This document shows, in pieces, positions 2,148 through 9,377 of a stretch of DNA of 64,000 bases. The position numbers were made by a program, and so were the translations under genes. The stretch comes from Shigella phage vB_SsoM_JK08. The notes beneath the pieces are model-generated. The model saw nothing but the letters and a program-made list of their open reading frames with translations. It did no database searches and was not told the DNA's origin. The DNA lies in sequence record LR877332; one strand, 5' to 3'. The first letter of the stretch is position 1. Every line of letters starts with the position of its first letter.

Positions 2148-2741
2148 TTATTTCAGAGAATTAATGTATTCCTGAACATCGGCAGAGGTAGTTTCAACCC
2201 CAGAAATATTACCGTTAAAGGTTTCAACTCGAGCAAGGGTATCTTCAATATCAACCTTAGTCAGTGCTGCAATTTCAACTACATCATCAGCAGTACTAAT
2301 TCCAAGGGCATTTGCTGCACGAGTTTCACGGATATATTCCAATTTAACCGCAAGTTCTTGACGAGCATCATCTAACTCAACTACTTTCTTGGCGATTTCA
2401 ATTCGCATTTCAGCATAACCGTCAGCCTTAGTAGTCAACTGCTCAGCTGTTCGACGATATAGTAAACCGAGTTTAGCATGCATTGTTACATCTTGGCCTT
2501 CGGAAAGAAGTTTACGAATTTCACGCTCTTTTGATTCGGCCTGTCGATTCTTTTCGATAACAAGTTCACGAATACGTTTTTCTTCGTTAATAGATTTAAC
2601 AGAAGCAGTTTTTAGATCTTTAATTTTATCAAGTAGTTTTGCTGCTGCAGCAGTATACTGTTCTTCGACAGATAGATTTTTAGCCATAGCAGAACCAAGT
2701 TTAGTGCGAATAAACTCAACAATTTTCTTCAGTGTGTTCAT
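2148..2741 (-). CDS. coiled-coil protein, possibly PspA/IM30-like
   Basis: 197 aa, charged heptad-like sequence throughout, amphipathic N-terminus; promoter-early stem-loop immediately upstream. Confidence 0.6.
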
Positions 2742-2807
2742 AGTATTTCCTTAGGTTAATTGAGATTTAAAATCCGTAGGAGTATAATACTCTATCGTCA
2801 AATTATA

Positions 2808-2842
2808 GGCTCATAATATCTCAATCATGAGCCTGCGTAAAC
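2808..2842 (-). promoter_or_regulatory. early promoter with stem-loop (PeSL-like)
   Basis: On minus strand GTTTAC -35, about 18 nt spacer, TATTAT -10 embedded in inverted repeat GGCTCAT...ATGAGCC; upstream of gene 2148..2741. Confidence 0.5.
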
Positions 2843-3106
2843 TTATTTCATATTATTGAAATATTCTTCTGCGATTTCGTCGTTATCATGGTAAACTTTA
2901 GAAGACAGTTTAACATAACCTTCTGCTGTGAACATATTAATCACAACTTTTACAGTATACCACTGACCGTCTTCATTACCCATTACTGCGTAAGTTTCAA
3001 ACATCGGATGATCAGGACCGATAACTTTAATATCATTCACTGTACGACCGAAATCTTCTGAAACGCATTTCATAAAGAAGTTGAACAGTTCGCCGTAATT
3101 ATCCAT
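2843..3106 (-). CDS. hypothetical protein
   Basis: Start set at ATG 3104-3106 (MDNYGELF) with GGAG 8 nt upstream; the longer track ORF to 3226 lacks a ribosome-binding site. Confidence 0.5.
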   Translation of the reverse strand: MDNYGELFNFFMKCVSEDFGRTVNDIKVIGPDHPMFETYAVMGNEDGQWYTVKVVINMFTAEGYVKLSSKVYHDNDEIAEEYFNNMK

Positions 3107-3149
3107 TTCATTCTCCAAGTTGTTTTCTGTATCAGTAGTTGATAGTTGT

Positions 3150-3178
3150 ATAGTACCATGGAAGAACAGAGATGTAAA
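3150..3178 (-). promoter_or_regulatory. early sigma70-like promoter
   Basis: Minus strand TTTACA, 17 nt spacer, TACTAT; preceded by TTTCACAAA block shared with the ipI-locus promoters. Confidence 0.45.
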
Positions 3179-3335
3179 CAGTTTTGTGAAAAAATTTTTA
3201 GGGAATTCTAGGGCAGGGATGGGCAATTAAAGGATAGGATAATATATTATAAAGGGTATAAACTAAATGATGCCTAGAGAGGTCCAGAAAGGCCTAGATA
3301 CCAAAAAGCCCTATCATTTAGATAGGGATTTAAAA

Positions 3336-3899
3336 TTATTTACCTAGTTTACTTATTATAGCTTCTGCAGCAGCTTTTAGCTTAGATGCAGTGTTAATAC
3401 GATTTTTAATTTCAGTATACGCATCGCCAAGAACATCAAGGCTATCAGAATAAACACTTACACTATTGCGTTCGCTATTTGAAATAGAACCTTTAGTTTT
3501 GCGGTCAAAATCGGTGTACACGTCTTGAAGATCGCGGGCTGCCTTCTTTGCATCATCCAATGCATCAAGAGCTTTATTCAAAGCATTAACGTATTTTTTA
3601 GTGTCGAACATATTCTTAGAAATTTTAACAGGTGCGCGTTCAGGAGTAGCTAACACAGATTTAGGAACCTGAGCGCCAGATGCCAATTTCTTAGAAATTT
3701 TGAAAAATGCTTTATTGAATTTATTTTCTTGACTCATTGTAAAAGAACTATTATCGATGTTGTACATTTCAATAGCTTTAGCTTTCCACTTAAGAAAATC
3801 GCCGCGGTCTTTTGGGTCCAATTGGAAGAATACTTTAGTAAGATCTGCTTCAGATGGTAATTTTGCTGCTTCGGTTAAAAATTCGGCATAGGTTTTCAT
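3336..3899 (-). CDS. internal-protein-like capsid-targeted protein
   Basis: 187 aa; N-terminus MKTYAEFLTEA matches the T4 internal protein capsid-targeting sequence MKTYQEFIAEA, with a protease-type LTE site. Confidence 0.6.
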   Translation of the reverse strand: MKTYAEFLTEAAKLPSEADLTKVFFQLDPKDRGDFLKWKAKAIEMYNIDNSSFTMSQENKFNKAFFKISKKLASGAQVPKSVLATPERAPVKISKNMFDTKKYVNALNKALDALDDAKKAARDLQDVYTDFDRKTKGSISNSERNSVSVYSDSLDVLGDAYTEIKNRINTASKLKAAAEAIISKLGK

Positions 3900-3989
3900 T
3901 TAAAATCCTTGAAATAATTTATCGGTTGGTTATTAATTATTTATTACTTTGTTACTATCCGTAACAGCGTTATCCGAGTGATTCAAACT

Positions 3990-4016
3990 AAAAAGCCCCA
4001 ACCTTTCGGTCGGGGC
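3990..4016 (-). terminator. rho-independent terminator
   Basis: GC-rich hairpin GCCCCGACCGAAAGGTTGGGGC followed by U-run on the minus strand, just after the stop of gene 4025..4498. Confidence 0.6.
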
Positions 4017-4024
4017 TAAGAATG

Positions 4025-4498
4025 TCATTTGATTTGTTTAGCAGACCAAATGCGGTCTTTAATAATTTTTTGGATGTCTTCAACATACTCAAGAGAGTGA
4101 ACATGTGGATTATCTTTGAAACTATAAGCACGGGCTAACTTTTGGCCTTCGGTTTTGATTACTAAAAGCTCTTTAAGGATAGCTTCATATTTGGAGATAA
4201 TTCCTTTAACAATATTTTTCTCTTGTGTGACTTTAGGATCTTCTTTAGGAGCAGGTTTACCTGAAGCCTTTGCAAAAGCAGCTCCAGTAGCAACTAAACT
4301 TTTCCAAGCCATACTAACTGCATTCCCTGTAAATCCTTCGGCTTTCATATCACGAGCAAATTGGAATCGTGATTCATCGGAAGCATCTTTATAGGAATAT
4401 TTACCCGCGGCAATGGCAGCTTTTGCAACAGCTTGAATTTCAGTGCTAGATGCTTCATTTAACACCGCTTCATTTAAAAATTGAGTATATGATTTCAT
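4025..4498 (-). CDS. internal-protein-like capsid-targeted protein
   Basis: 157 aa; N-terminus MKSYTQFLNEA resembles the capsid-targeting sequence; late promoter TATAAATA directly upstream. Confidence 0.6.
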   Translation of the reverse strand: MKSYTQFLNEAVLNEASSTEIQAVAKAAIAAGKYSYKDASDESRFQFARDMKAEGFTGNAVSMAWKSLVATGAAFAKASGKPAPKEDPKVTQEKNIVKGIISKYEAILKELLVIKTEGQKLARAYSFKDNPHVHSLEYVEDIQKIIKDRIWSAKQIK

Positions 4499-4534
4499 CT
4501 TATTTCCTGTTTTAATTCGGGGTTTTAATATACT

Positions 4535-4542
4535 TATTTATA
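4535..4542 (-). promoter_or_regulatory. T4-type late promoter TATAAATA
   Basis: Exact TATAAATA on minus strand about 37 nt upstream of ATG 4498. Confidence 0.55.
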
Positions 4543-4544
4543 CT

Positions 4545-4571
4545 AAAAAGCCCCAACCTTTCGGTCGGGGC
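4545..4571 (-). terminator. rho-independent terminator after tRNA/stable RNA cluster
   Basis: Same hairpin sequence as at 3990-4016, followed by U-run on minus strand. Confidence 0.6.
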
Positions 4572-4625
4572 TAAGCCTTGCGGCAACCTTGTCGGGGTTC
4601 CACCTTCTAAGGCAAGTGTTTGTAC

Positions 4626-4780
4626 GAAACGCCGGGATTCGAACCCGGTTATTAAGCAGTTGACGCTACTCAATATTTTTAAAAGGCCATATCTCGACCA
4701 TATCCGAACGTTCCGTCAAAAACGCTACTCGGCTTACGGCAAAGATATTTCCTCGAATCGATAATTCGGTGCGCCGTTTC
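4626..4780 (-). ncRNA. tRNA-like stable RNA (T4 species 1/2 RNA-like)
   Basis: 3' part folds as T-arm (CCGGG TTCGAAT CCCGG) closed by GAAACG/CGTTTC acceptor-like helix enclosing about 150 nt; lies just downstream of tRNA-Arg as in T4. Confidence 0.35.
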
Positions 4781-4888
4781 TGCTGTGATATAAGGGGACA
4801 TTAACAAAACATAAAGATTTATTAATACCAGTCCTTAAACAGGGAACATCAGTCCGACGACTTGCCGGTAGCGACCCGGCTTCTTGTC

Positions 4889-4964
4889 TGGTCGAGGCAG
4901 TAGGGATCGAACCTACGACCCAGGACTTAGAAGGTCCTTGCTCTTCCTTCTGAGCTATGCCTCG
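4889..4964 (-). tRNA. tRNA-Arg (anticodon TCT), CCA encoded
   Basis: Manual cloverleaf: acceptor CGAGGCA/TGCCTCG, D-stem GCTC/GAGC, anticodon stem AGGAC/GTCCT with loop CTTCTAA, T-loop TTCGATC. Confidence 0.85.
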
Positions 4965-4968
4965 TATT

Positions 4969-5043
4969 TGGCGGACGTGATAGGATTCGAACCTATAACC
5001 AATCGCTTAACAGGCGATCGCTCTGCCATTGAGCTACACATCC
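4969..5043 (-). tRNA. tRNA-Asn (anticodon GTT), CCA encoded
   Basis: Cloverleaf: acceptor GGATGTG/CACGTCC, D-stem GCTC/GAGC, anticodon loop CTGTTAA, T-loop TTCGAAT. Confidence 0.8.
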
Positions 5044-5047
5044 AAAT

Positions 5048-5134
5048 TGGTGGGGAGTGGTGGAGTCGAACCACCCGAGTCGCAATGACAATGAATTTAC
5101 AGTCCACACCGCTACCTCTACGGGATAACTCCCC
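5048..5134 (-). tRNA. tRNA-Tyr (anticodon GTA), long variable arm
   Basis: Acceptor GGGGAGT/ACTCCCC, anticodon loop CTGTAAA, long variable arm, T-stem GGTGG/CCACC; D-arm and anticodon stem less canonical. Confidence 0.6.
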
Positions 5135-5143
5135 AAATTAATT

Positions 5144-5218
5144 TGGTGGCCCTGGGTGGAATTGAACCACCATCTGGCGATTATGAGTCGCTTGCTTGAA
5201 CCTTCCAGCTACAGGGCC
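5144..5218 (-). tRNA. tRNA with anticodon CAT (Met, or Ile if lysidine-modified)
   Basis: Acceptor GGCCCTG/CAGGGCC, anticodon loop CTCATAA, T-loop TTCAATT; occupies the position of T4 tRNA-Ile. Confidence 0.75.
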
Positions 5219-5219
5219 T

Positions 5220-5295
5220 TGGTGCTGATTGACGGAATCGAACCGCCGACCTTCTCATTACAAGTGAGTTGCTCTACCTACTGAGCTAAATCAGC
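5220..5295 (-). tRNA. tRNA-Thr (anticodon TGT)
   Basis: Acceptor GCTGATT/AATCAGC, D-stem GCTC/GAGC, anticodon loop CTTGTAA, T-loop TTCGATT. Confidence 0.85.
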
Positions 5296-5300
5296 AAAAC

Positions 5301-5390
5301 TGGCGGAGGCGATAGGATTTGAACCTATGAGTCGCCGGAGCGACTGCCGGTTTTCAAGACCGGTGCATTAAACCACTCTGCCACGCCTCC
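5301..5390 (-). tRNA. tRNA-Ser (anticodon TGA), long variable arm
   Basis: Acceptor GGAGGCG/CGCCTCC, anticodon stem CCGGT/ACCGG with loop CTTGAAA, variable-arm helix AGTCGC/GCGACT, T-loop TTCAAAT. Confidence 0.85.
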
Positions 5391-5392
5391 AG

Positions 5393-5466
5393 TCTCCGTG
5401 GCAGGATTTGAACCTACGACATTCTGCTCCCAAAGCAGACGCTCTACCAAACTGAGCTACACGGAG
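5393..5466 (-). tRNA. tRNA-Pro (anticodon TGG), CCA not encoded
   Basis: Acceptor CTCCGTG/CACGGAG, D-stem GCTC/GAGC, anticodon stem TCTGC/GCAGA with loop TTTGGGA. Confidence 0.85.
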
Positions 5467-5476
5467 TAAATTAAAT

Positions 5477-5550
<74 letters not shown>

Positions 5551-5555
5551 AAATT

Positions 5556-5642
5556 TGGTGCGAGAAGTGGGACTCGAACCCACAAGGAAATCATTCCGCA
5601 GCATTTTAAGTGCTGTGCCTTTACCAATTTGGCCATTCTCGC
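5556..5642 (-). tRNA. tRNA-Leu (anticodon TAA), long variable arm
   Basis: Acceptor GCGAGAA/TTCTCGC, anticodon stem CAGCA/TGCTG with loop CTTAAAA, T-loop GTTCGAGT; one nt from tRNA-Gln. Confidence 0.85.
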
Positions 5643-5643
5643 G

Positions 5644-5716
5644 CTGGGAATAAAGGACTCGAACCTTTGCATCCTGGAATCAAAATCCAGTGCCTTACCA
5701 ACTTGGCTAATTCCCA
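5644..5716 (-). tRNA. tRNA-Gln (anticodon TTG), CCA not encoded
   Basis: Acceptor TGGGAAT/ATTCCCA, anticodon stem CTGGA/TCCAG with loop TTTTGAT, T-stem AAAGG/CCTTT. Confidence 0.85.
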
Positions 5717-5813
5717 ATTATTAACAAAGGCTCTTAAGCAAGAACCCTTGATGATAGAGGGTATTAATCAGTGCGATATGAGTTAATAATAACAAATAAT
5801 TCTTAAAGCATAT

Positions 5814-6101
5814 TTACCATTTATAATAATACATATTTACGATGCATTCAAGACCCAAAGGATTCTTGAAAATATCATATTCAAGAGGACCTTTTTCTGT
5901 TTCAATAAAGAAATCAAAATTTACTGTATTAAATTTACGTTCTTCCTTCACTAATTTAACTTGAGAAGATGAACGGTCAATGTAAACCTTTTCAACTTCA
6001 AAACATGTTAAAATGCCATAATCATCAATCAAAGCTTTAGCCGCGTCTTGATCATATTTATATCCATTTTCAATGGATGATACTTTCGCATAAAGAATCA
6101 T
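5814..6101 (-). CDS. hypothetical protein
   Basis: 95 aa ORF with ATG start, abutting gene 6104..6502. Confidence 0.5.
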   Translation of the reverse strand: MILYAKVSSIENGYKYDQDAAKALIDDYGILTCFEVEKVYIDRSSSQVKLVKEERKFNTVNFDFFIETEKGPLEYDIFKNPLGLECIVNMYYYKW

Positions 6102-6103
6102 TA

Positions 6104-6502
6104 TCAGCCTTCATCAACAATAGTGTGAGTATTAGCATTTACGATTTGCCACCAATCAAAGCGATTAGAATCCATCGGTTTGTTTTCATTTTCTTTGATA
6201 ATGTCACGGAGTTCATCTTCAGAGAATGCTTTAGCAATTAAATCGGTATACCCACCACGGGGATAATAATTATCACCTGCAAACAAAAGGAAATTTACCT
6301 TCCCGGAAGCAACATATGCTTCCTTAGGATACTTGTTTCCTGCGTGGTCAACCACTTCAATATAACGGTAAGGAATATCGGTTCTTTCAACCCATTGCCA
6401 TGCCGCCGCAGGGGAATCGAAAGCATCTACACCTAAACGATTATCTTCATCTTTAGACGGATTATTTTCGTAATCCGCATATACATAATATTCAACGTTC
6501 AT
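6104..6502 (-). CDS. hypothetical protein
   Basis: 132 aa ORF, ATG at 6500-6502, stop overlaps start of upstream gene (ATGA). Confidence 0.5.
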   Translation of the reverse strand: MNVEYYVYADYENNPSKDEDNRLGVDAFDSPAAAWQWVERTDIPYRYIEVVDHAGNKYPKEAYVASGKVNFLLFAGDNYYPRGGYTDLIAKAFSEDELRDIIKENENKPMDSNRFDWWQIVNANTHTIVDEG

Positions 6503-6687
6503 TATTCACCTTTAGAAATTTTATCCATAACAATAGCAATTAAACCAATTAAAAATGCTACTACAAGTGAAAACACATTTTCTGCTGTAGTCAATAATCC
6601 ACATATAAATCCAACAAACATTGAAAAACTAAAAGCGGAAGCAGAAATTGCAATAGCAACATTTCGAATTAATTCACAACGTTTCAT
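6502..6687 (-). CDS. small hydrophobic membrane protein
   Basis: 61 aa, almost entirely one or two transmembrane helices; GAGGAG ribosome-binding site; PeSL promoter upstream. Confidence 0.5.
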   Translation of the reverse strand: MKRCELIRNVAIAISASAFSFSMFVGFICGLLTTAENVFSLVVAFLIGLIAIVMDKISKGE

Positions 6688-6706
6688 TTTATTCTCCTCA
6701 GTAGTA

Positions 6707-6744
6707 GATAGGGTAATAGTATCACTACCCTATCTAAAAGTAAA
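6707..6744 (-). promoter_or_regulatory. promoter-early stem-loop (PeSL) cassette
   Basis: Minus strand TTTACT -35, 17 nt spacer, TACTAT -10 inside perfect inverted repeat GATAGGGTA...TACCCTATC. Confidence 0.55.
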
Positions 6745-6745
6745 C

Positions 6746-6979
6746 TTATTTTTTACGAAAAATTGATTTATTTTCTGCTGCCCATTTTTCAATAACTGCA
6801 GCAGGACCAGTAACAACAATTTTATCACCGTAATCTTCTGCGGCGAGTTGACCGAAATTATCTAATGCATCACGAAGAACTCCATGAGGCATTTCACCCA
6901 TTTTATCTTTCTTGCCAGTGTAAATAAACTCAACTTTTACATCAGCAGTTTCAGCAATAAATTCTTGGTAAGTTTTCAT
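6746..6979 (-). CDS. internal-protein-like capsid-targeted protein (ipI-locus cassette)
   Basis: Start chosen at MKTYQEFIAE (ATG 6977-6979), identical to the T4 capsid-targeting sequence; the track ORF starts 4 codons earlier at 6991. Confidence 0.55.
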   Translation of the reverse strand: MKTYQEFIAETADVKVEFIYTGKKDKMGEMPHGVLRDALDNFGQLAAEDYGDKIVVTGPAAVIEKWAAENKSIFRKK

Positions 6980-7005
6980 TTTGATTTCCATTTGGTTTTG
7001 TTTTG

Positions 7006-7042
7006 ATAGGGTAATAGTATCACAACTAAAACCCTATGTAAA
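7006..7042 (-). promoter_or_regulatory. promoter-early stem-loop (PeSL) cassette
   Basis: TTTACA, 17 nt spacer, TACTAT with inverted repeat TAGGGT...ACCCTA; adjoining 30 nt block GTAAACAACTTTGTGAAATTATTTTAAATC repeated at 7367-7396. Confidence 0.55.
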
Positions 7043-7055
7043 CAACTTTGTGAAA

Positions 7056-7313
7056 TTATTTTAAATCTTCTAATCGTTTCTTCATCTTAGAACCATTTTT
7101 AGCAATTTCTCCTGCATCGGAGCATAATGCTAAAAGTGCTTTAACTTTAGTTTGGTCTCCTTTAAAAGATGAAGGATCGACCGCAGCAGCAAGTTCTTTA
7201 ATACGAGAGAAAAGACGCTCAGCTTCAGCTAAAGCCATTCCAAGCTTTACTTCCATACCGTGGGAAGATTCGGTGATAGTAGTTTTTGTAGCAAACTCTT
7301 TGAAAGTTTTCAT
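7056..7313 (-). CDS. internal-protein-like protein at the ipI position
   Basis: 85 aa, N-terminus MKTFKEFATK resembles the capsid-targeting sequence; sits next to 57B where T4 has ipI. Confidence 0.55.
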   Translation of the reverse strand: MKTFKEFATKTTITESSHGMEVKLGMALAEAERLFSRIKELAAAVDPSSFKGDQTKVKALLALCSDAGEIAKNGSKMKKRLEDLK

Positions 7314-7335
7314 TTTTATTTTCCTAATTAATTTT

Positions 7336-7373
7336 GATGAGGTAATAGTATCACTACCTCATCAGTATGTAAA
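7336..7373 (-). promoter_or_regulatory. promoter-early stem-loop (PeSL) cassette
   Basis: TTTACA, 17 nt spacer, TACTAT inside inverted repeat GATGAGGTA...TACCTCATC, immediately after 57B stop. Confidence 0.55.
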
Positions 7374-7386
7374 CAACTTTGTGAAA

Positions 7387-8071
<685 letters not shown>

Positions 8072-8072
<1 letters not shown>

Positions 8073-8797
8073 TATAGTACCTTTAGTGTATTTTTAATTT
8101 TAGAAAAAAGTTCTTCAAGAGAACCATCGTTTGTAATTACTAAATCGCCATCACGAATTGGCAATCCAGCTTCTGTAATATGTGTATCATTGGATTTTTG
8201 ACCAGGACGAACTACATGAATTACTGTAGCACCCATCGCCCTAGCCGCATCCATTTCATGATCTTGACGGGTATCAGGAACGATATAATAATCATAACCT
8301 GAGTTAAATTTATCAAGATAATCTAAAGCAAATAATTTTACCCAGTACATGCGGTCGAAGTTATTAACAATCAAATCCGTACCTAGGGCTTGCATCAGAC
8401 GACGGACTGACCATTGATCTTCAATATTATTTATAACGTCAATAATCTTGTTAAATGCTACGGAATTAACTGATTCTTGTCCTTCGTCATCAAAAACAAA
8501 CACACCTTTAATTGGGCTTTTACCATTAAGATAGCAAAATGCTTGTTCCATAATCGTGATTACTTCTAATTTAGTTAGATTTAAATTAGTCTCACGATCA
8601 TAGTCAATTCCTTCAAACTCTTTACGAGTTAAGCAAGGATAGTCGGTATTTGCTGCAAATACTCCCCATGCATAAGCCAATGCATCCTTAATAGGACCAG
8701 CAAGTTGGTATTTAACTGCAGAATAATTGCTCATGATAAAATCAGCAGTAGTATCTTTTCCACTACGCTTTACACCGCTTAAAAAGATTAGTTTCAT
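8072..8797 (-). CDS. 1: deoxynucleoside monophosphate kinase
   Basis: 241 aa, P-loop GVKRSGKDT near N-terminus; length and position match T4 gp1. Confidence 0.9.
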
Positions 8798-8846
8798 ATG
8801 TTTCTCCTCAAATTTAGTTAAGATTATAACACATGAAACTGAAGCA

Positions 8847-9377
8847 TTAAACTTCCGCTATAATTTTTCCATCTTTTTCTACTTGAAAATACGTATAAGG
8901 AATCGTTGCTGTACATACTAAAGCCGGGTCTGAATCTTCTGTGTAGCTAAATTCTACTTCAGATAGGTCAGAAACCCAAGGCTTATAAAAATTTATTGAC
9001 ATCACGATTTCAGTTTTGCTATTATCTAAAATGTAAAGCGTAATGTATTCAGGACCTGTTTTTTGGGCAGTATTTTCACCTGTAAGATAGTTGCTAGTTC
9101 CTAGCATCCATTCATACATTCCTATCCATGACTTAAGTTCTTCATCAACTATAAATCTCACGATGAGTGGATCGTACTCAAATGTAGCACCTGGACGTTG
9201 TGCTCGGCCCAGTCCAAACGGCCCAGTCACGGTATCAGTAACAGGTATTCTAATTCCTGGAATAGGAACTGACTGAGCATTTAAAGTAAAAGCAGATGTA
9301 GTATTACTATGTGGTATTGATACTACAAAGTTAGTTGTATTTGCTTGGTTAAAAATTTGTTGCAGTGCTTGCGACAT
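8847..9377 (-). CDS. 3: gp3 tail tube terminator / sheath stabiliser
   Basis: Start moved to ATG 9375-9377 (GAGGA ribosome-binding site), giving 176 aa as in T4 gp3; the track ORF extends to a TTG at 9458. Confidence 0.8.
   Translation of the reverse strand: MSQALQQIFNQANTTNFVVSIPHSNTTSAFTLNAQSVPIPGIRIPVTDTVTGPFGLGRAQRPGATFEYDPLIVRFIVDEELKSWIGMYEWMLGTSNYLTGENTAQKTGPEYITLYILDNSKTEIVMSINFYKPWVSDLSEVEFSYTEDSDPALVCTATIPYTYFQVEKDGKIIAEV

Follow-up and report, generated by a model that had tools for sequence, protein, structure and literature searches.

Which function do the similar elements that punctuate the small genes between 57B and the tRNA operon have, and do they exchange these genes as well as express them? 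The window, i.e. the whole stretch of 64,000 nucleotides that was analysed, carries three such elements, which an initial annotation read as promoter-early stem-loop (PeSL) cassettes of an ipI-locus hyperplastic region. This reading is borne out by the fit of the elements to a published promoter consensus, by the arrangement of the same locus in PST and by published descriptions. Hence, the region is very probably the ipI hyperplastic locus of a T4-like phage, with three T-even-type PeSL-like cassettes driving and shuffling internal-protein (IP) genes. In the mechanism that we propose, each cassette would consist of a strong 'early' promoter of the sigma-70 type and, downstream of it, a Shine-Dalgarno sequence (SD) and a start codon, and the cassettes would drive immediate-early transcription of ip5, ip6 and the trna.4/tRNA unit. 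The perfect blocks of 14-33 nt common to the cassettes, together with the leader-coding 5' ends of the IP genes, would provide crossover sites, at which homologous recombination of the phage may delete, insert or exchange whole promoter-gene units between co-infecting relatives. The outcome would be a re-assorted repertoire of capsid-targeted, probably anti-restriction, proteins. This proposal builds on what the sequences display directly, namely the anatomy of the cassettes, the conservation of promoter elements, natural indel and hybrid junctions and the covariation of hairpin arms.

Over positions 5800-8100, the window shows 100% identity with several Tequatrovirus genomes, among them Escherichia phage D5505 and Yersinia phage PYps35T, and 859 phage records, nearly all Tequatrovirus-like, match this segment; judging from these matches, the source phage is a Tequatrovirus (T4-like). 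The genes follow the minus-strand order 1-57A-57B-ip5-ip6-trna.4-trna.3-trna.2-tRNAs (Table 1). The three cassettes sit between 57B (Acb1) and the tRNA operon, fronting ip5, ip6 and trna.4, respectively. The sizes initially given for the first and the last of these genes (85 and 61 aa) are right, and the gene starting with MKTYQEFIAE has 77 aa, not 78. A Pfam search returned no family for ip5, ip6 or trna.4, and an Rfam scan of positions 2500-8900 at E <= 1 returned the tRNAs and weak chance matches only, none of them at the cassettes.

Table 1. Features of the locus and of the promoters compared with it (positions are those of the window)
Feature	Position	Strand	Description	Support or fold
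gene 1	8072-8797	-		
57A	7842-8072	-		
57B	7387..7845	-	Acb1 anti-CBASS phosphodiesterase; conserved, borders the variable locus on the left	Pfam PF23474 Acb1 E = 2.7e-60; annotated 57B in T4 and PST
ip5 (ipV)	7056..7313	-	85-aa internal head protein	phrog_3499 'internal head protein' E = 1.2e-49; annotated in MG781190 and PST
ip6 (ipVI)	6746..6979	-	77-aa internal virion protein	phrog_8111 E = 1.3e-52; annotated ip6/ipVI in relatives
trna.4	6502..6687	-	61-aa predicted membrane protein; conserved right flank	phrog_1692; T4 annotation
ten tRNAs	4889-5716	-		
Cassette A early promoter	7345..7373	-	TTTACA, 17 nt spacer, TGA + TACTAT; predicted start near 7338	
Cassette B early promoter	7014..7042	-	TTTACA, 17 nt spacer, TGA + TACTAT	
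Cassette C early promoter	6716..6744	-	TTTACT, 17 nt spacer, TGA + TACTAT	
Hairpin A	7335..7364	-	brackets -10; 13 pairs as RNA, 10 Watson-Crick, AUAC loop	-17.4 kcal/mol, z = -4.6
Hairpin B	6998..7045	-	interrupted; main 7-bp stem ATAGGGT/ACCCTAT with inner and outer helices	-18.1 kcal/mol, z = -4.3
Hairpin C	6705..6736	-	14 pairs as RNA, 11 Watson-Crick, AUAC loop	-18.5 kcal/mol, z = -4.2
33-nt perfect direct repeat, copy 1	7366..7398	-	GATTTAAAATAATTTCACAAAGTTGTTTACATA; 3' end of 57B (three codons and stop), A/T-rich upstream region, -35	
33-nt perfect direct repeat, copy 2	7035..7067	-	GATTTAAAATAATTTCACAAAGTTGTTTACATA; 3' end of ip5 (three codons and stop), upstream region, -35	
Late-promoter-like site	8428..8435	-	TATAAATA; inside gene 1, upstream of 57A; likely read-through source	
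Early promoter before e.8	3150..3178	-	shares upstream block TTTCACAAA..TGTTTACAT; no hairpin	-1.5 kcal/mol, z = +0.8
Early promoter before e.6	2813..2841	-	unrelated 11-bp hairpin brackets -10	-15.8 kcal/mol, z = -4.4

Both ip5 and ip6 carry an MKT[YF]xEF-type leader ending at a prohead-protease site (L/I-x-E) and belong to internal-protein families (phrog_3499 and phrog_8111, respectively). Cleavage of the ip5 leader MKTFKEFATKTTITE is predicted after I-T-E and before S, and this site (MKTFKEFATKTTITE followed by S) resembles that of T4 IPI (MKTFKEFTSTTTPVSTITE followed by A). The leader of ip6, MKTYQEFIAE followed by T, is a 10-aa capsid-targeting leader of the IPII/IPIII type. Internal proteins bear such a capsid-targeting leader (PMC9026906). 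Each of the T4 proteins Ip1, Ip2 and Ip3 inhibits a GmrSD type IV restriction enzyme of its own, no target being known for other Ips; Ip5 and Ip6 are probably anti-restriction proteins too. When ip5 and ip6 were compared by BLASTP, only the 11-residue leader aligned; the mature parts are unrelated and fall into different PHROGs. The small genes had initially been regarded as strain-specific cargo, and this view could not be maintained: 251 phage records contain ip5 and 221 contain ip6, and PST has the same architecture. Nor is the 61-aa gene a variable cargo, since trna.4 is the conserved right flank of the locus. It is the first gene of the trna.4-trna.3-trna.2-tRNA unit and is present in nearly all relatives.

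The three elements lie on the minus strand where they had been placed, and the arrangement TTTAC(A/T)-17 nt-TACTAT was confirmed in each. Every cassette comprises an A/T-rich upstream region, GTTTAC, a 17 nt spacer, a TGn extended -10 and TACTAT, and so fits the described T4 early promoters (UP/-35/TGn/-10, with GTTTAC at -36 to -31). Each also has the same intergenic layout, in which the stop codon of the upstream gene lies in the AT-rich region and is followed by the promoter and then by the SD and ATG of the next gene. According to Comeau et al. (2014), the consensus of the PeSL promoters of PST/T4 is TTTACW-N17-TAYWAT; all three cassettes match it exactly and carry TGn in addition. Their invariant core is GTGATACTATTACC, and the shared-core pattern has three matches versus 0.00 expected in 100 shuffles, which excludes chance. 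To call the elements near-identical, as had been done, was generous: over 71 nt, cassette A is 86% and cassette C 61% identical to cassette B. Furthermore, cassette A is base-for-base identical to the T4 cassette located between 57B and ipI. In an alignment of 33 distinct sequences from upstream of trna.4, anchored on the gene start only, GT(T)TAC, TG, TA..AT, CCTATCAA and GGAG(A) are conserved and the spacer and upstream region vary, as selection on a promoter would give. No promoter features are annotated in this region in the T4 GenBank/RefSeq records, and our literature search found no usable T4 transcription-start data covering ipI. From their composition and conservation, we infer that these promoters fire.

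Two of the cassettes share a perfect direct repeat. The initial annotation correctly noticed a block repeated at two cassettes and spanning the stop codon of the upstream gene, and gave it 30 nt; its true length is 33 nt. The last three codons of 57B and of ip5 lie inside this repeat, where both encode D-L-K. One relative (L034) lacks precisely the 331-bp ip5 unit and otherwise corresponds to the window, its flanks being identical up to and through the repeat. The junction of this insertion/deletion is inside the 33-nt repeat, copy 2 being the crossover interval. In T4, ipI is found in place of ip5 and ip6 is absent; furthermore, the cassette preceding trna.4 is a hybrid, of which the left half corresponds to B and the right half to C. 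Another relative (L033) has a 102-aa protein in this place. In several relatives, the two arms of a cassette belong to different classes, which is consistent with crossover in the shared GATACTAT core. PST displays 57B-ipV-ipVI-tRNA.4, i.e. the same arrangement as the window, with 96% identity.

These observations were extended to 38 phages, namely T4, PST, the window and 35 of the 36 loci fetched via 57B (L037, which matched with 33% identity, was excluded). Among them, the interval from 57B to trna.4 contains 0-4 genes with an MKT[YF]xEF-type leader, belonging to 19 sequence families and found in many combinations. Comparison across T4-like genomes, which had been suggested as a check, thus gave a positive answer: the relative without the ip5 unit, T4 and the survey of the 38 phages all indicate that cargo differs between identical flanks. 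The borders of these indels and replacements (the ip5 unit, ipI versus ip5, the hybrid cassettes) are located in the cassettes, as expected for a hyperplastic region.

It had also been stated that the finding of the same cargo genes without the repeated flanks would speak against this reading. This is partly the case in one relative (L016), which encodes an 81%-identical ip5 homologue with a shorter, different leader, located 8 nt after another IP gene and having no upstream promoter cassette. Hence, cassettes are frequent but not obligatory borders of the modules. Moreover, several relatives, L013 and L021 among them, have IP genes that follow one another directly: the stop codon of one overlaps the start codon of the next or lies a few nt from it, and no cassette intervenes, so that shuffling does not depend on cassettes alone.

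The repeats might be a mere by-product of the tandem duplication of an ancestral promoter-plus-IP unit followed by divergence, without any role in exchange. An old duplication would indeed give the leader and the similar control sequences that are common to all IP genes. However, the mature parts of ip5 and ip6 share nothing with each other and yet their flanks keep 33 nt of perfect identity, the 19 families are unrelated and occur in shuffled orders, the 331-bp indel is precise and has its junction in the repeat, and hybrid cassettes exist. We consider this explanation highly improbable, and simple tandem duplication was rejected on account of the unrelated cargo and the hybrid junctions.

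Exchange of promoter-gene units at the cassettes, which remains the preferred reading, is a process already described in related systems. Arbiol et al. (2010) defined PeSLs as elements whose stem-loop is most commonly located between -35 and -10 or overlaps -10, and demonstrated promoter activity, terminator activity and mini-circles for PeSLs of RB49/phi1. All three cassettes of the window likewise have a stable stem-loop overlapping the promoter. Like them, RB49/phi1 PeSLs comprise a stop codon, an AT-rich region, -35, -10, a stem-loop, SD and ATG, and undergo crossovers inside the element. They differ by their near-perfect TTGACA/TATAAT hexamers and their GGGG/CCCC stems. With their TTTAC(A/T) -35, TACTAT -10 and AT-rich stems, the cassettes of the window are therefore not sequence homologues of RB49/phi1-type PeSLs. 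This agrees with Arbiol et al. (2010), who considered the T-even IP elements, with their T4 early promoters and weaker AT-rich stems, as analogues and not homologues. These authors credit Repoila et al. (1994) with PeSL-like sequences at two variable T-even IP loci. As far as the descriptions given in later papers and genome annotations allow the match to be made, the elements of Repoila et al. (1994) do not differ substantively from ours: the locus, the gene class, the T4-early-type promoter, the AT-rich stem-loop and the proposed role in IP shuffling are the same. Comeau et al. (2014) extended PeSLs to PST/T4, again linking them to the IP locus. The PST/T4 PeSLs described there by Comeau, Arbiol and Krisch resemble those of the window in their consensus, in their hyperplastic location beside indels and in the order 57B-ipV-ipVI-tRNA.4. 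According to a figure legend of that article, the stem-loops of PST immediately precede the promoter, whereas the stems of the window bracket -10.

The architecture is thus already known (Arbiol et al. 2010; Comeau et al. 2014; Repoila et al. 1994 being credited), and the locus is a textbook case of it in a heavily sequenced phage group. It illustrates how the set of injected proteins is reshuffled in T4-like phages, and it directly adjoins the anti-CBASS gene acb1 (57B). For annotation, ip5 and ip6 should be viewed as widespread alleles at a variable locus that is already known, trna.4 as a fixed flank, and the cassettes as the expected control and recombination elements, which leaves current understanding unchanged. 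Other systems offer looser parallels. In bacterial promoter-coupled terminators (Fletcher et al., bioRxiv 2026), one element also ends and starts transcription units. Unlike in the window, where the stem encloses -10 and has no T-tract, their stem-loop contributes the -35, and -10 comes after a T-tract. The attC cassettes of integrons are a working analogy, as small promoter-proximal genes located between imperfect inverted repeats and shuffled as units. The locus is not an integron, since there is no integrase, the sites are promoters and plain homologous recombination over 14-33 nt of identity could account for the exchange.

The stem-loops themselves differ more from one another than initially proposed. 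The -10 is embedded in an inverted repeat in each cassette, as had been claimed, but the 9 bp perfect inverted repeat attributed to all three does not exist as such, the stems being of 10 (A), 7 (B) and 11 (C) bp. The perfect stems of A and C are TGATGAGGTA/TACCTCATCA (10 bp) and TAGATAGGGTA/TACCCTATCTA (11 bp), respectively, and as RNA both extend to 13-14 pairs through G.U. In cassette B, the 7-bp stem is displaced beside the -35 and encloses an 18-nt interior. The -10 is located in the loop and 3' arm of the hairpin; the inverted repeat is centred on it, with A-11 in the loop. Only 0-1 of 200 shuffles folded as well as the native hairpins.

Pairing is kept between cassette classes of which the arms differ: GATGAGG/CCTCATC, GATAGGG/CCCTATC, AGGTCTATAG/CTATAGACCT, AGGGCTAT/ATAGCCCT, AGGGTTAT/ATAACCCT, TAGGACTAT/ATAGTAGTCCTA and GTAGGGATA/TATCCCTAC. 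Native arm pairs fold with a mean of -10.3 kcal/mol versus -5.8 for arm-swapped chimeras. In an ungapped alignment of 21 sequences, both sides are changed at 7 of the 12 stem pairs, 71% of the cells are paired (versus 28-57% with slid partners) and the covariation score was reached by none of 500 shuffles, statistics that are inflated both by the relatedness of the sequences and by the derivation of the structure from these same sequences. The sense fold is more stable than the antisense one in 29 of 36 distinct cassettes (44 versus 22 G.U pairs), an asymmetry that does not amount to strong evidence because the inner G.U pairs are bases of the promoter consensus (TG, TACTAT) and the cassettes are not independent. 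Outside the promoter-constrained bases, the stem positions that are not Watson-Crick are G.T in eight cases and A.C in two. Several variant cassettes are paired only via sense-strand G.U; for instance, cassette C of PST reaches -12.8 kcal/mol in the sense and -5.5 in the antisense orientation. This bias weakly favours a structure formed at the RNA level.

In three relatives (L009, L020 and L035), the corresponding hairpin is formed between the promoter spacer and the SD of trna.4. The fold of this L009-type hairpin is -19.4 kcal/mol in read-through RNA versus -1.4 in RNA starting downstream of -10, where a locally initiated transcript would begin. The three stems of the window end about 20-30 nt before the SD, which they leave uncovered. 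In the T4 genes e, soc and I-TevI, a hairpin with an internal promoter restricts translation to locally initiated transcripts. As in the window, the promoter is inside the hairpin and only read-through RNA folds; however, the internal promoter of these T4 genes is late, whereas that of the window is early and its stem does not cover the SD. The L009-type hairpin of trna.4 resembles the e/soc logic. A selected RNA element would be in keeping with the covariation, the G.U bias of the sense strand and the variant that pairs with the SD, none of which proves it.

Since the 3' arm precedes the predicted start, being situated between it and -10, hairpin RNA would be found only in read-through transcripts. 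Such transcripts, which would come from 57A/57B or from the preceding cassette and contain the hairpins, are plausible. Their likely source is the late-promoter-like TATAAATA inside gene 1, and T4 has the middle promoter P57A at the equivalent place inside this gene. This late-promoter-like sequence is also the nearest of its kind to ip5 and ip6, neither gene having its own late promoter. Hence, supply of these head-core proteins late in infection would require read-through.

This requirement bears on the possibility that the hairpins are efficient terminators, each cassette being a composite terminator-promoter that isolates the genes transcriptionally, as in one RB49 PeSL. The stem-loop of that PeSL lowered lacZ expression to an extent similar to rrnB T1, and a general role was proposed from it (Arbiol et al. 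2010); moreover, the hairpins of the window are stable (-17 to -18.5 kcal/mol). However, none of the three stems is followed by a U-tract, the following sequences being AAAAUUAA, CAAAACAA and CUACUGAG, and a terminator scan found no terminator-like site at any cassette although it detected canonical ones at 3994-4017 and 4549-4572. An efficient terminator is therefore unsupported by the sequence, and the hairpins do not have the make-up of an intrinsic (Rho-independent) terminator, i.e. a GC-rich stem with a U-tract. In addition, proteins needed late for the head core would depend on read-through across the hairpins, and Arbiol et al. (2010) rated the T-even IP stem-loops as weaker and more AT-rich. 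We therefore regard termination as an unlikely function.

In read-through RNA, the hairpin would most likely act as an attenuator, a processing site or a stability element. A bolder proposal is that the -10-bracketing hairpin is a selected RNA element that marks or processes read-through RNAs, as a 3'-end stabiliser, an RNase site or an SD-sequestering switch of the L009 type. We put it forward as a speculation with a rather low chance of being right. If true, read-through and locally initiated mRNAs of one IP gene would be handled differently, which would be new for T-even IP cassettes.

The inverted repeat could also act as DNA, being the operator of a dimeric regulator, a cruciform that aids melting or a recombination starter cut by a nuclease such as endonuclease VII. 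Its centring on -10 with A-11 in the loop would suit such a role, stem-loop-specific recombination proteins were the subject of speculation by Arbiol et al. (2010), and, among 20 promoter-like sites of a comparable kind between positions 1 and 77,000 of T4, seven have -10-bracketing stems. However, the arm sequences differ by class with pairing kept, and this covariation in place of conservation makes a sequence-specific operator unlikely; the operator reading was rejected on this ground. The variants that are paired only via sense-strand G.U and the excess of G.T over A.C mentioned above also speak, weakly, against a DNA-level role. Moreover, stems of 10-14 bp extrude poorly as cruciforms. 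Altogether, we judge action as DNA to be very unlikely.

The stems at seven of the 20 T4 sites and at the e.6 promoter of the window indicate that placing -10 in a stem is a design that is not special to the IP locus. The e.6 and e.8 promoters had been pointed out, at 2808-2842 and 3150-3178, as similar to those of the cassettes. The likeness holds for the e.8 promoter, which shares the upstream block without having a hairpin; the e.6 promoter has a hairpin, but an unrelated one. In T4, the stems that bracket -10 include 15-bp ones before dmd and in the mobD.2 region.

57B (7387-7845) encodes Acb1 (PF23474, E = 2.7e-60), a cyclic-nucleotide phosphodiesterase directed against CBASS, and genes of injected internal proteins are located directly downstream. 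Therefore, 57B and its neighbours make up a small counter-defence cluster, in which the role of Ip5 and Ip6 is putative. The 33-nt recombination repeat, with copies at the ends of 57B and ip5, includes the three final codons of acb1. Furthermore, one relative (L016) carries an ip5 homologue (1142-1384, relative to the 57B start) whose mature part is 81% identical but whose leader is shorter and different (MKTYQTFMTE versus MKTFKEFATKTTITE). Such an ip5-like mature part behind another leader suggests that leaders and mature domains of internal proteins have themselves been recombined.

Upstream of trna.4, three relatives' loci retrieved through 57B (L009, L020 and L035) harbor CAAATGGAGAT, which includes the trna.4 Shine-Dalgarno sequence and is complementary to the promoter spacer ATCTCCATTTG. 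In read-through RNA, the predicted spacer/Shine-Dalgarno fold reaches -19.4 kcal/mol (z = -4.7); an RNA begun downstream of the -10, like a locally initiated transcript, is essentially unstructured (-1.4 kcal/mol). According to these folding models, this pairing may be a translational switch.

A second variable locus with leader-bearing genes is located between e.8 and the tRNA cluster (3312-4575) and includes two phrog_2280 paralogues. These units are bordered by terminators and not by promoter cassettes like those of the ip5/ip6 locus. The two terminators constitute a 40-nt repeat (95% identity), and TATAAATA at 4535-4542 belongs to the 157-aa gene. Phage fFiEco06 lacks a 675-bp stretch that carries the 187-aa gene.

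Features of the second variable locus, further early promoters and T4 hairpins (window positions unless a T4 stretch is named)
Feature	Position	Description
phrog_2280 paralogue, 187 aa	3336-3899	N-terminus MKTYAEFLTEA...
phrog_2280 paralogue, 157 aa	4025-4498	N-terminus MKSYTQFLNEA...
Canonical terminators, one after each paralogue	3994-4017 and 4549-4572	near-identical
Early promoter before e.6	2813-2841	unrelated 11-bp hairpin around -10
Early promoter before e.8	3150-3178	hairpin absent
15-bp hairpins bracketing -10 (T4)	L041 ~20612 and L042 ~57990	-21.7 and -20.2 kcal/mol

The adjacent tRNA cluster (4889-5716) consists of ten uninterrupted genes (Arg, Asn, Tyr, Met, Thr, Ser, Pro, Gly, Leu and Gln) and is devoid of the segB homing endonuclease, whereas in T4 segB interrupts a set of eight tRNAs, and rnaC and rnaD are also present. 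T4 also differs by gene e.7, which is missing in the window between the e.6 and e.8 promoters. The e.8 promoter shares the upstream block TTTCACAAA..TGTTTACAT with cassettes A and B, the hairpin-bearing early promoters before ip5 and ip6.

Stems bracketing the -10 occur at 7 of the 20 early-promoter-like sites in T4 positions 1-77,000. The sites upstream of dmd and within the mobD.2 region have 15-bp hairpins with similar arms (GACAAGACTATGGTATAGTAGTCTTGTC).
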